Source: Octopus vulgaris
Lineage: Eukaryota
Reading direction: 5' to 3'
DNA length: 64,000 nt
Assembly (NCBI GenBank): GCA_951406725.2
Contig: OX597821.1
Span: forward strand, 21,390,001 to 21,454,000
Shown here: positions 19,047 through 61,341 of the stretch, one piece after another
Layout: each line of letters opens with the position of its first letter
How positions within the stretch are numbered: the first letter of the stretch is position 1
Program-made: the position numbers and the translations under genes
Notes under the pieces: model-generated
Databases searched by the model: none
The model's input: only the letters and a program-made list of their open reading frames with translations
Told to the model about the DNA's origin: nothing

Positions 19047-19246
19047 ATCCTGGTCTTGTTAAAATTTGAATATTGTAAAAATAAACAGAGTCTTATATTA
19101 GTTATTACTGATTACCTCGTCGAAGAGTGATTCTTCGACGAAAGAACTAGTAAATACTAATTTCCTTTACGAAGGATTTTCATTACTTCTTCGACAATGG
19201 AAAGGGTAACTACATATATCCTTTATTGAAGTAACTCTTCAATTAG

Positions 19247-19340
19247 TTTTCTCTGAGGATGGAATGTTTGTCTTTTATAAGAAAATGTTTGCTCAATGTT
19301 GCATGCATGTACAGCAATTCTAGAAACAGCTGTAAGAGAG
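19247..19340 (+). ncRNA. Type I hammerhead ribozyme motif, intact core, long helix II
   Basis: TTTTCT-CTGAGGA-TGGAAT...ATTCTA-GAAA-CAGCTG-TA-AGAGAG. Palindromic helix III ACAGCTGT. Predicted cleavage after A19334. Confidence 0.75.
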
Positions 19341-19994
19341 TTTATACACAGATTTTAAATCTATTTTCTCTAACACTTCTGCAATTATGTTTGAATTATA
19401 AATTACATGTCTCAATGTGATACCACATGCTTTGCATATTCATTTTGTGTTCTTAAATATGTGTGTGTGCGCACGTGCGTGTCTACGCATGTCTGTATAT
19501 ATATATACATATGTATGTATATATATATGTATATACATATGTATGTATGTGTGTGTGTATGTATGTAAGCAAATATGTATGTATGTATGAATATATATAT
19601 GTATGTATATCGGTGTTCATGATCATAAATGCGTGTGTTTAGCCGAAGTAATTTATTCACTAGTTTTCTTAAACGTCAAACAATAGTATCTCCGTATCTC
19701 TGTACAAACATGTTTCTTACACTAATACAATTTCTGTTCATATTTGCTTTCGTCTGTATATATATTGATAATTTTAATCGGTCAGCCGAAGCTTGTTCCG
19801 TTTCGGCTGACCAAATCCAAGCTATTTATATACTACCTCCGGTAATGAGTACTTTTTCTTCCGTTCGTTAGGAATAACATATTTTTCGTGTGTGTATACA
19901 TATGTGGGTGCTTGCATGTGTGTATGTTTGCGTGCATATTTCTGATTGTATACAAACAAATGTACGATTGGTTTTGTATATAGTCGCATATATA

Positions 19995-24039: not shown

Positions 24040-25172
24040 TTGAGACCATGTGGAATGGAAGAATGTTTAGAGTAAACCAGTCCTATTCTCGATGGATGGG
24101 GGAGTCCGGTTGGCCTCTGTGCAAGGTCATCAGACAAATGGTGCTGAGAATGCCTAGTCGAGCAGAGGTTGTGCGAGACCGGGTGTCATTTCCGAGTCTG
24201 ATGTTCCGGAGATTTTCGGCAGACCAGTCAGCCAAAGCCGGTTTCCCCAATGTACAGAGAGTGATGGAGAGAGGAGAGCAGGTAATTGAATAAATTGCTG
24301 GAGGTACAGATGTGGCAGGAGCGCTTTTGGAGAGATGCCAGCGAGGATGGTGGTGTTGGTAGATGCGGAGATGCAGACGAGAGTAAGGTAATGAACAAGT
24401 TTGGGCGCCAAAAGTGGGGCAGAAGCTACGGAGAAGAATTTACGTAGTTTACGGGCGTGTTTCAACGATGACAGGGAAAGGTTGCGGATGACGTACGAGG
24501 GAGAGGGATCAGATTGGTGCTAACTGAAATCACATAGAATAGTGACTTAGTAAGGCAGAGTTGAGACTTAGTAAGGCAGAGTTGAGAGACTTAGTAAGGC
24601 AGATTTGAGAGGATGGAAGGTAGGTAAGGGTGGGGCGAGAGCAGCGTCAGGGTTTGGATGCAGGGTCAACAGATCTGACAGGGTTGTTTAGATAACAGTA
24701 AGGACTATGCCTGTTGAGTGAATTAGTGAACCATAACTTTGAGATTATGTCTCGAAGTCATGGTCATCACTGCAGAGCCGATGGGGATGGAAGAACTGAG
24801 AGTAAGGGATGGACAGTTTGGTTTGCGTAGAGTGGGAAGAGAAGAAGTTGAAATACGAGTGTAAGGCTATGGGCTTACAGGGAATAAAGGTGGTAAGCAA
24901 GGAGCGGAGGATGGTAACAGAAATGTCGAGTAAGTTGACGAAGATGTTGGAGACAGAGCATAAGAATTCGAGCGCGGGATGGAAGGACTAGATGAAAAAG
25001 TGGAAAGAGTCGAGATGTTTGCTGGAGAGTTAGATCACGCCGATACACTCATAAATGTAACGACCGTACAGCTCGGAAGCCGGACAGGTGTACTGAGAGA
25101 ATATTTTGCCCTCAACATGGCCGACAAAAAGTTTCGCATAGTTGGGGTACATTCTTGTTCCAATGTCCGCTA
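24040..25172 (-). mobile_element. Decayed Penelope-like element (RT C-terminal half and thumb, GIY-YIG endonuclease)
   Basis: Manual minus-strand translation: GTRMYPNYAKLFVG...YGRYIYE...SFHPALEF...LLDISV...KPIALHSYFNFFSSH...KLSIPYSQF...LCSDDHDF (25165-24745), then SNL...LYIGETG (about 24238-24300). Stops and frameshifts present. Confidence 0.85.
24545..24610. repeat. Three tandem 21-23 bp copies (gacttagtaaggcagagttga)
   Basis: Direct reading, inside the Penelope-like relic. Confidence 0.9.
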
Positions 25173-25550
25173 GAGACATGATTGTAAAACTCTTACGCGA
25201 ACGAAAAGTAAATTAAGGAGACCACTAGTTCAGCCATTATGCAAAAAAATAGTTATATTTGTCAAAGGCATAGTTTATTAATGAAATATACAGTATTGGA
25301 GAGCTATTAATAATGATCAGACGTTAGATAACTCAGCGCTTATCGAATATATCAGCACTTAAGTGATGGTAGGTGTGGGAAAAATATCCATGTCTGGTAT
25401 CCCCGAACATCACGTGAATGAAATAACCAGATATGTATCTAATATCCCGTGGGAAAGGAATTCGTAATATCGGCTGTAATATATTTATTTCCTATATACT
25501 TTGATTTTCATATACATACATACAAATATTTATCATATATATATATATCA

Positions 25551-45580: not shown

Positions 45581-45650
<70 letters not shown>

Positions 45651-45653
<3 letters not shown>

Positions 45654-46076
45654 GAAGGGTGAAATTAATTAATTTGGAATAATTATCAATTACACCAAGT
45701 AGTCTTCGGCATGTAAAAGCCGAGTTGATACTGAGTTGAGTTGATGCCTTCTAGTATCTCAAAATTCAATATATAATCATTTATGATTATAGTATTCTAC
45801 GCTGAAGAGAAAAGAAGTTTTCGGTAAGATAGAATTATTTAACATTTAATTCTTATGCTTTCCTAAAGACTTGATTTCGAAACGTACGTCCGTAGATAAC
45901 TTAAAATTGTATGATAGATTGCCGTTAATTCATCCTCTCTTACCTGTTTGTGTCTGCCTTCCAATTGCTGTTTTTACTGAGATCTCCCTTTTAGTAGAAG
46001 AAATAGCTATAACTCTTTGACTGCTATTTCTAAATTCGGTATGTGGTAAGGCAACTAGTTGCTAAACCCTTTATTG

Positions 46077-46078
<2 letters not shown>
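45651..46078 (+). mobile_element. About 430-bp non-coding hammerhead-carrying unit inserted in (TA)n
   Basis: Bounded by pure (TA)n at 45584-45650 and 46079-46142. Its 3' terminus gtggtaaggcaactagttgctaaaccctt recurs at 61287-61320. Confidence 0.75.
45796..45896 (+). ncRNA. Type I hammerhead ribozyme, canonical core, about 70-nt helix II domain
   Basis: TCTACG-CTGAAGA-GAAA...TTTC-GAAA-CGTACG-TC-CGTAGA: 6-bp helix I, G10.1-C11.1 pair, palindromic helix III ACGTACGT and GUC triplet. Predicted cleavage after C45890. Confidence 0.85.
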
Positions 46079-46147
<69 letters not shown>

Positions 46148-46496
46148 GATGAATGAATGTGTTCTGATATATATACATACGTAACCTAAAATTTATGACT
46201 TATAATGACATGTATACAATTGTTTTTATTATCTGTTCTATTTACGCATATTTGACCACCGTTGCAATTGCAGACGAACGAGTAATGGAGCCTACTACAT
46301 GTTCTAGTGAGATGCTAGATATGGCAGACTCGATATCCTGAAATCACCAGTTCCTATATAGAAATGATACAGTATTTCATTGTGTTCCCCACACTCGTAA
46401 ACGAATGTATAAGTTTTTTATAGCGGTGTCGTATGAAATTCTCACCCATAATTATAACCCTAGTATCGATCTATTGCATTGCAATCTATTTTAGAT

Positions 46497-46553
46497 TTAG
46501 GGTTAGAGTTAGGGTGAGTTAGGGTTAGTTAGGGTTAGGGTTAGGGTTAGGGG
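46497..46553 (+). repeat. Short interstitial (TTAGGG)n array
   Basis: About 9 exact or variant TTAGGG units inside non-simple sequence (about 46420-46730). Confidence 0.85.
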
Positions 46554-61221: not shown

Positions 61222-61290
<69 letters not shown>

Positions 61291-61341
61291 TGAGGCAAAT
61301 CGTTGCTAAACCCTTAATTACTTAGTATGTATATATATATG

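Follow-up and report, generated by a model that had tools for sequence, protein, structure and literature searches.

The window, a stretch of 64,000 nucleotides of the Octopus vulgaris genome (contig OX597821.1, positions 21,390,001 to 21,454,000), carries an insertion with a hammerhead motif in a (TA)n microsatellite. The first-pass annotation had described this insertion as a 430-bp unit, the best-preserved of its kind, inside pure (TA)n. The microsatellite was borne out on both flanks, but the 430 bp are not a unit: they comprise 353 bp of a 593-bp tandem monomer together with 73 bp from the unit that follows, in inverted orientation. Using as reference a natural monomer (locus L003, 1266-1858), we found forward positions 236-588 and inverted positions 96-24, both 100% identical to the monomer and separated by a 4-nt join. 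Hence, the element is a truncated two-armed insertion with a single ribozyme, rather than a best-preserved unit. The 3' end of its inverted arm, at monomer position 96 (site B, see below), adjoins the left (TA)n. The features are the following:

45584-45651, no strand: left (TA)n, insertion target
45649-45721, minus strand: inverted arm, monomer 24-96, part of the ~100-nt tail, 73/73 identical to the L003 monomer
45722-45725, no strand: inversion junction, 4 nt
45726-46078, plus strand: direct arm, monomer 236-588, 5'-truncated, with a site-A end, 353/353 identical to L003
45796-45896, plus strand: type I hammerhead, predicted cleavage after C45890
45796-45801/45891-45896, plus strand: helix I, 6 bp, TCTACG/CGTAGA
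45802-45808, plus strand: core CTGAAGA (CUGAAGA)
45809-45878, plus strand: long helix II, 70 nt, closed by G10.1-C11.1
45879-45882, plus strand: core GAAA
45882-45889, plus strand: palindromic helix III, ACGTACGT
45888-45890, plus strand: cleavage-site triplet GTC
46000-46030, plus strand: hairpin of the 3'-end domain
46035-46043, plus strand: 5' strand of a conserved stem, predicted partner in the tail (monomer ~31-39) in tandem or circular RNA
46051-46070, plus strand: small hairpin plus ACCCU, shortly 5' of site A
46078-46143, no strand: right (TA)n, insertion target
61283-61328, plus strand: isolated 3' terminus (site A) from a sister subfamily, within microsatellite

This anatomy changes how several smaller structures described at first pass are read. 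The hairpin tcggc/gccga (45706-45723) straddles the inversion junction and its last 2 nt are junction bases. The hairpin gaaatagc/gctatttc (46000-46030) was confirmed, and relatives show almost no variation in its 3' strand. The palindrome gcaactagttgc is perfect as a variant in the youngest subfamily, but 22 of 32 copies differ at monomer position 565 and 21 of 32 at 567; these copies keep a GCAA/TTGC stem in its place. Finally, the lone family terminus reported at 61287-61320 in microsatellite is indeed a 3' terminus (site A), but that of a sister subfamily and with a slightly larger extent (61283-61328). The window also contains a short interstitial TTAGGG-like array (46491-46552), some 400 bp to the right of the element.

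The hammerhead motif and its relatives

The motif has the nucleotides of a type I core, i.e., C3 U4 G5 A6 N7 G8 A9, G12 A13 A14, the pair A15.1-U16.1, and H17. The earlier claim that every catalytic nucleotide is present thus stands, with CTGAAGA, GAAA, and GTC at the expected positions, and the 6-bp helix I and the G-C base of helix II (G10.1-C11.1) were recovered as described. It had also been anticipated that standard descriptors could miss the long helix II. This helix spans 70 nt, and an Rfam search of the element returned no hammerhead, neither at the gathering threshold nor at E up to 10. A strict hammerhead descriptor matched two places in the window and gave no match in 200 of 200 local shuffles. 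The ribozyme region is no more stable than shuffles (z -1.0). Helix I is interrupted by an internal loop after 6 bp and helix II after 4 bp, and these loops are candidates for a loop 1-loop 2 contact.

Helix III, ACGTACGT, had not been noted earlier as a palindrome. The probability of its first pair in a single copy is 0.04, hence it hardly forms in one copy. Two copies cofold as a double hammerhead at -55.2 kcal/mol. Two separate monomers reach -42.8 kcal/mol, so the double form is favoured by about 12 kcal/mol. In the available text of PMC4209133, a palindromic helix III completed in the dimer is the usual design of metazoan type I hammerheads. From these folds, self-cleavage is predicted to require a pair of hammerheads, and the window copy, which has one ribozyme, would not cleave alone and is likely an ordinary dead-end insertion. 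In frogs, 8 of the 9 retrozyme dimers tested did not cleave in vitro, according to the part of the preprint available (bioRxiv 10.64898/2026.07.22.740005).

To assess selection on the ribozyme, we aligned 12 distinct subfamily motifs that carry the shared end motif downstream. Among the aligned cells 92% pair, compared with 27-42% in slid controls, and 24 cells changed on both sides, a count that relatedness among the subfamilies inflates; none of 500 shuffles was as high. Helices I and II lie outside the search pattern, and both sides change in 3 of 6 pairs of helix I and in 2 of 4 pairs at the base of helix II. The pair G10.1-C11.1 occurs in 9 of the 12 subfamilies as aligned, and the palindrome of helix III is retained through double change in 4 of the 12. 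Support for the distal part of helix II is poor, with 79% of cells pairing and none changed on both sides. The invariance of the core among these relatives is circular, since they were picked by the core. When 22 loci were chosen by the end motif instead, eight had a proper core upstream and L139 was a ninth, the remaining ones being truncated, inverted, or unresolved. Two of the eight carry a U3-G8 mismatch. In a subfamily fetched by DNA similarity, U3-A8 replaces C3-G8 in 19 of 22 motifs. A core-versus-flank test within the family was dropped, the copies being too alike. Judged from the aligned motifs, the ribozyme helices are kept by compensatory changes, and the subfamily fetched by DNA similarity has such a change at C3-G8. 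We thus consider the hammerhead to be real on the basis of its complete core, its covarying helices I-III, and the predicted dimer fold.

The wider superfamily is large, with 5429 matches to the end motif in the genome (control 0). A pattern for hammerheads with a long helix II gave 1705 matches (control 7), a count that takes in unrelated families. A second and older hammerhead family is present in the window (19245-19352, plus strand; CTGAGGA...GAAA CAGCTG TA), with 46 genomic matches at ~70-80% identity and the core kept in most loci examined. Other non-coding hammerhead repeats with a long helix II and a palindromic helix III were found at L054 (~600-1000) and L059 (1-600), and these also occur as inverted pairs in (TA)n.

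A tandem family and the ends of its insertions

The genome search suggested at first pass for copy number and boundaries was done in the species' own genome (2.8 Gb, 227 contigs; 40 of 1981 candidates scored). With regard to expression, four sequence runs, all of them contigs, span all 30 bins and reveal no ends. The 430-bp query had at least 178 matches, most of which cover positions 76-428 only, with positions 1-71 on the opposite strand. The spacing of the matches shows a period of 593 bp, and natural loci carry head-to-tail arrays of up to 7 full units with nothing between them and one type I hammerhead per tandem unit. The tandem unit is thus 593 bp long. Exact-pattern searches yielded 491 matches to a 36-mer near the 3' end and 245 to the ribozyme core (controls 0). 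The monomer has a GC content of 0.34, and the longest stop-free stretch in a natural tandem is 56 aa. Copies 100% identical to the window copy exist at other loci, and there is no ORF above 56 codons, in agreement with the earlier view of a recent, non-autonomous element. Units within an array differ at 2.8 of 581 sites, versus 15.2 between loci; such low divergence within arrays fits a circular and a tandem precursor alike. The family is a young non-coding non-LTR retrozyme lying in (TA)n. We found no paper on it in the searched literature, outside of which lie most subscription papers, and it may already be catalogued in Repbase or Dfam.

We then surveyed the ends of insertions in two sets. 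The unbiased set takes a single locus per site from the 59 sites to which the first 100 of the 491 36-mer matches belong, and the second comprises 27 further loci; matches shorter than 36 nt or below 86% identity were dropped. Ends at monomer position 570 or beyond were classed as site A and those at 70-115 as site B. Site A is mostly at 586-593, up to 5 nt beyond (~586-598), and site B falls in the following unit, at position 96, 104, or 111. The ~100 nt from A to B are called the tail. TA-rich DNA adjoins 105 of 132 3' ends (73/92 and 32/40). One-armed insertions (n=30) have the A end in 23 cases and the B end in 7. Two-armed insertions pair A with B in 30 of 31 cases in the unbiased set, the exception being A+A, and in 13 of 13 in the second set, which includes the window copy. 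Hence, A+B is found in 43 of 44 two-armed insertions when both sets are taken together. Two 3' ends bounding a tail, an inverted 5'-truncated arm, and a microsatellite target make up a PLE-type signature.

Across 11,678 overlapping sites, the two arms of the same insertion diverge by 1.0%, versus ~4.2% between loci, and the arms stop within 12 nt of each other in 8 of 43 pairs. Such arms would be expected if both primings used a single RNA or a single source, and later conversion could also homogenise them. Fold-back as the sole origin of inverted arms was rejected because in 12 of the 43 insertions, window copy included, the B arm does not extend beyond the tail and has no part in common with the A arm. 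As 47 of the 86 arms run through the predicted cleavage site, the template was mostly uncut or re-ligated. We observed a weak excess of 5' ends near the cleavage site (6 versus 2.6 expected, p ~0.05, in a region chosen after looking), and the second set has no 5' end in this region.

Both ends are associated with similar predicted structures. The tail carries a second hairpin with ACCCU, preceding site B, as the one in the 3'-end domain precedes site A. When 16 tandem junctions were folded as single sequences, site A lay within a long stem, and a hairpin and ACCCU stood before each site. The conserved stem predicted between 46035-46043 and the tail has 9 pairs with one-sided changes only, and the alignment fold of the 3' domain keeps 14 pairs, also with one-sided changes only and no two-sided covariation. 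Since the changes are one-sided, the 3' domain is conserved, not proven by covariation. These folds suggest a structured 3' domain with a stem around site A and a hairpin-ACCCU at both sites.

Autonomous families and the proposed mechanism

With 150 of 6136 candidates scored in a search for GIY-YIG proteins, the genome is known to hold at least three autonomous families with intact ORFs matching RT and GIY-YIG: F1 (781 aa, L081), F2 (775 aa, L238/L266), and F3 (L327/L341). They are young and have pLTRs, hammerhead-like motifs, and (TA)n flanks. From their C-terminal endonuclease and cysteine linker, and without a tree, we read F1 and F2 as Neptune type. All 76 scored copies of F2 are 100% identical in protein (at least 76 copies). 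The two ends of F2 are 30 nt apart, and A+B was found in 8 of 8 two-armed insertions among 20 loci, as well as in L231 and the L240/L241 pair, i.e., in 10 of 10. The ends of F1 are 40 nt apart, with A+B in L086 and L088. F3 has a single 3' end, and we saw no tail.

In F1, at L081 (431-5666), an upstream ORF overlaps the 781-aa RT-endonuclease ORF in another frame, the pLTR has a U3-A8 hammerhead, and the tail is 40 nt long. F2 (L238, L266) has a hammerhead-like motif with U4C and an internal (TA)7 directly after site B. The window itself contains a decayed PLE-type RT fragment (24769-25194, minus strand), ~74% identical to young F3.

The monomer has no RT and GIY-YIG ORF and no DNA similarity to F1, F2, or F3, including their pLTR or 3' end. 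Since these families share no DNA sequence with it, we found no parent pLTR among them. Various retrozyme and PLE families accumulate in the same TA tracts (L009, L058, L099, L347). Apparent links between PLEs and the monomer at L058, L077, L099, L347, and L348 were rejected, since the elements had inserted separately into one TA tract or into tracts close to each other. At L329 (2392-2393), a 5'-truncated F3 directly adjoins a sister retrozyme at its B end, with no TA in between. This could be a template switch, or a nested or later F3 insertion with a small deletion; it is one case and was not counted as support.

We hold the following reading with high confidence. The element is an insertion with two arms and a truncated 5' end, and it derives from a young non-LTR retrozyme, i.e., a non-coding tandem repeat of 593 bp that carries a type I hammerhead. 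It was likely put into (TA)n in trans by the RT and GIY-YIG endonuclease of an autonomous PLE. Tandem copies would be transcribed, and pairs of hammerheads would dimerise via the palindrome ACGUACGU and release monomers, which may be circularised. The PLE protein would bind the structured 3' domain and nick both strands of the (TA)n tract. One cDNA would be primed at A and the other at B, each on a match of 1-3 nt of TA/AT, and the two cDNAs would be joined tail to tail. In the window copy, synthesis of the B-primed cDNA would have ended at 73 nt and that of the A-primed cDNA at 353 nt.

Work on related systems, as given in the available parts of the sources, accords with such steps. The protein of a lizard PLE makes nicks in both strands of an AT-rich target, reverse transcription starts in vitro at two internal sites bounding the tail, the protein is a predicted dimer, and ribozyme cleavage is not needed (PMC11167929). 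PLE insertions have inverted truncated arms, a 30-40-bp tail that is often one-ended, and a bias for (TA)n (PMC8557442). Retrozymes yield linear and circular RNAs, with PLEs as proposed movers (PMC7229834; bioRxiv 10.64898/2026.07.22.740005). For animals this movement is a proposal in which PLEs are the named candidate (PMC7229834), and for frogs the evidence offered is co-occurrence with PLEs and relatedness of pLTRs (bioRxiv 10.64898/2026.07.22.740005).

The copies might instead be 3' remnants (pLTR and tail) of an unseen autonomous PLE, in which case there would be no self-standing non-coding family. Their ends, inversions, and target are as in PLEs, and only 150 of the 6136 GIY-YIG candidates were scored. 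This account is nevertheless unlikely given the head-to-tail arrays, with up to 7 full units per locus and no sequence between units, and given that no PLE ORF is contiguous with the monomer or a relative at the examined loci, bar the one junction at L329. We give even less credit to a satellite, or a repeat made by rolling circle at the DNA level, with the hammerhead as an inactive relic: the arrays are tandem, but they are short and dispersed, their 3' ends are fixed while their 5' ends vary, and inversions occur; the compensatory changes in three helices and at C3-G8 argue against a relic.

It is just as improbable that the copies stem from a retrozyme or SINE-like RNA moved by the reverse transcriptase of a LINE and not of a PLE. 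L1 twin priming likewise makes inversions, LINE-like RT ORFs lie near some loci, and we found no sequence link to a PLE. Yet a two-armed copy is bounded on either side by a 3' end of the element, and these ends lie at two internal sites, as in F1 and F2; the copies have no poly(A) or simple-repeat tail of their own.

Mobilisation of the retrozyme by PLE machinery thus remains our preferred reading. A broader model is put forward tentatively, as a possibility of somewhat less than even probability. PLE integration may be a coupled two-site reaction, with one protein dimer and two hairpin-ACCCU docking sites on the same RNA. The dimer would prime the two nicked strands from the two docking sites and therefore leave exactly one tail per two-armed insertion. 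The retrozyme superfamily, with thousands of copies and many subfamilies but no sequence-related parent left, would parasitise this reaction through a structured 3' domain of ~200 nt and the 100-nt tail. If this is true, the retrozyme offers a natural substrate of small size with which PLE priming can be dissected.

In this young retrozyme, the ends of insertions carry a PLE-specific two-site signature, which provides genomic evidence for PLE machinery moving retrozymes and for the coupled use of its two priming sites. The end pairing in 43 of 44 insertions, repeated in two autonomous families of this genome, yields a sharp prediction about how PLEs carry out the second-strand step of integration. 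With intact and near-identical F2 proteins (76 copies) and a substrate of 593 nt, this prediction could be put to the test in the in vitro system already published.

Comparison with known systems

We compared the family with known systems as described in the available parts of the cited sources. Like non-LTR retrozymes (PMC7229834; bioRxiv 10.64898/2026.07.22.740005), it consists of non-coding tandem repeats of low GC (34%) with one type I hammerhead per unit, occurs as dimers to multimers and as dispersed partial copies, and co-occurs with PLEs. Its 593-bp unit is larger than the typical 150-450 bp, although the families in the preprint range from 51 to 972 bp, which includes 593. The 70-nt helix II and the lack of a pLTR parent among our findings set it apart from the retrozymes described there, as do the two priming sites, the inverted arms, and the (TA)n target, which are not described in those parts.

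The family also resembles EN+ Neptune-type PLEs and the non-autonomous MRC1 (PMC8557442, PMC4209133) by its 5' truncation, partial tandems, inverted 5'-truncated arm, one-ended tail, microsatellite target, and hammerhead with a palindromic helix III near the 3' end. It differs from them (PMC8557442) in having no ORF and a tail of ~100 nt, versus the 30-40 reported and seen in F1/F2. The text available for PMC8557442 gives the one-ended tail qualitatively, and we did not find the A+B end pairing stated quantitatively in the searched literature. With Poseidon PAc of Anolis (PMC11167929), it shares two internal RT start sites bounding the tail, an AT-rich target, and insertion without the need for ribozyme cleavage. 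In that system the target strands show no difference in start site in vitro, whereas here the ends of a two-armed insertion lie at different sites in 43 of 44 cases. As in the double hammerhead of newt satellite 2 (PMC4209133, PMC7229834), an unstable palindromic helix III is predicted to be rescued in tandem dimers, but the family forms short dispersed arrays with retrotransposition ends in place of large satellite blocks.

Going by its sequence, the family has the features of a non-LTR retrozyme, appears to work like a PLE-mobilised element, and does not seem to be a derivative of F1, F2, or F3. It is hence of a kind already known, to which it adds a 100-nt tail, a ribozyme with a long helix II that Rfam misses, and a near-absolute pairing of A and B ends.
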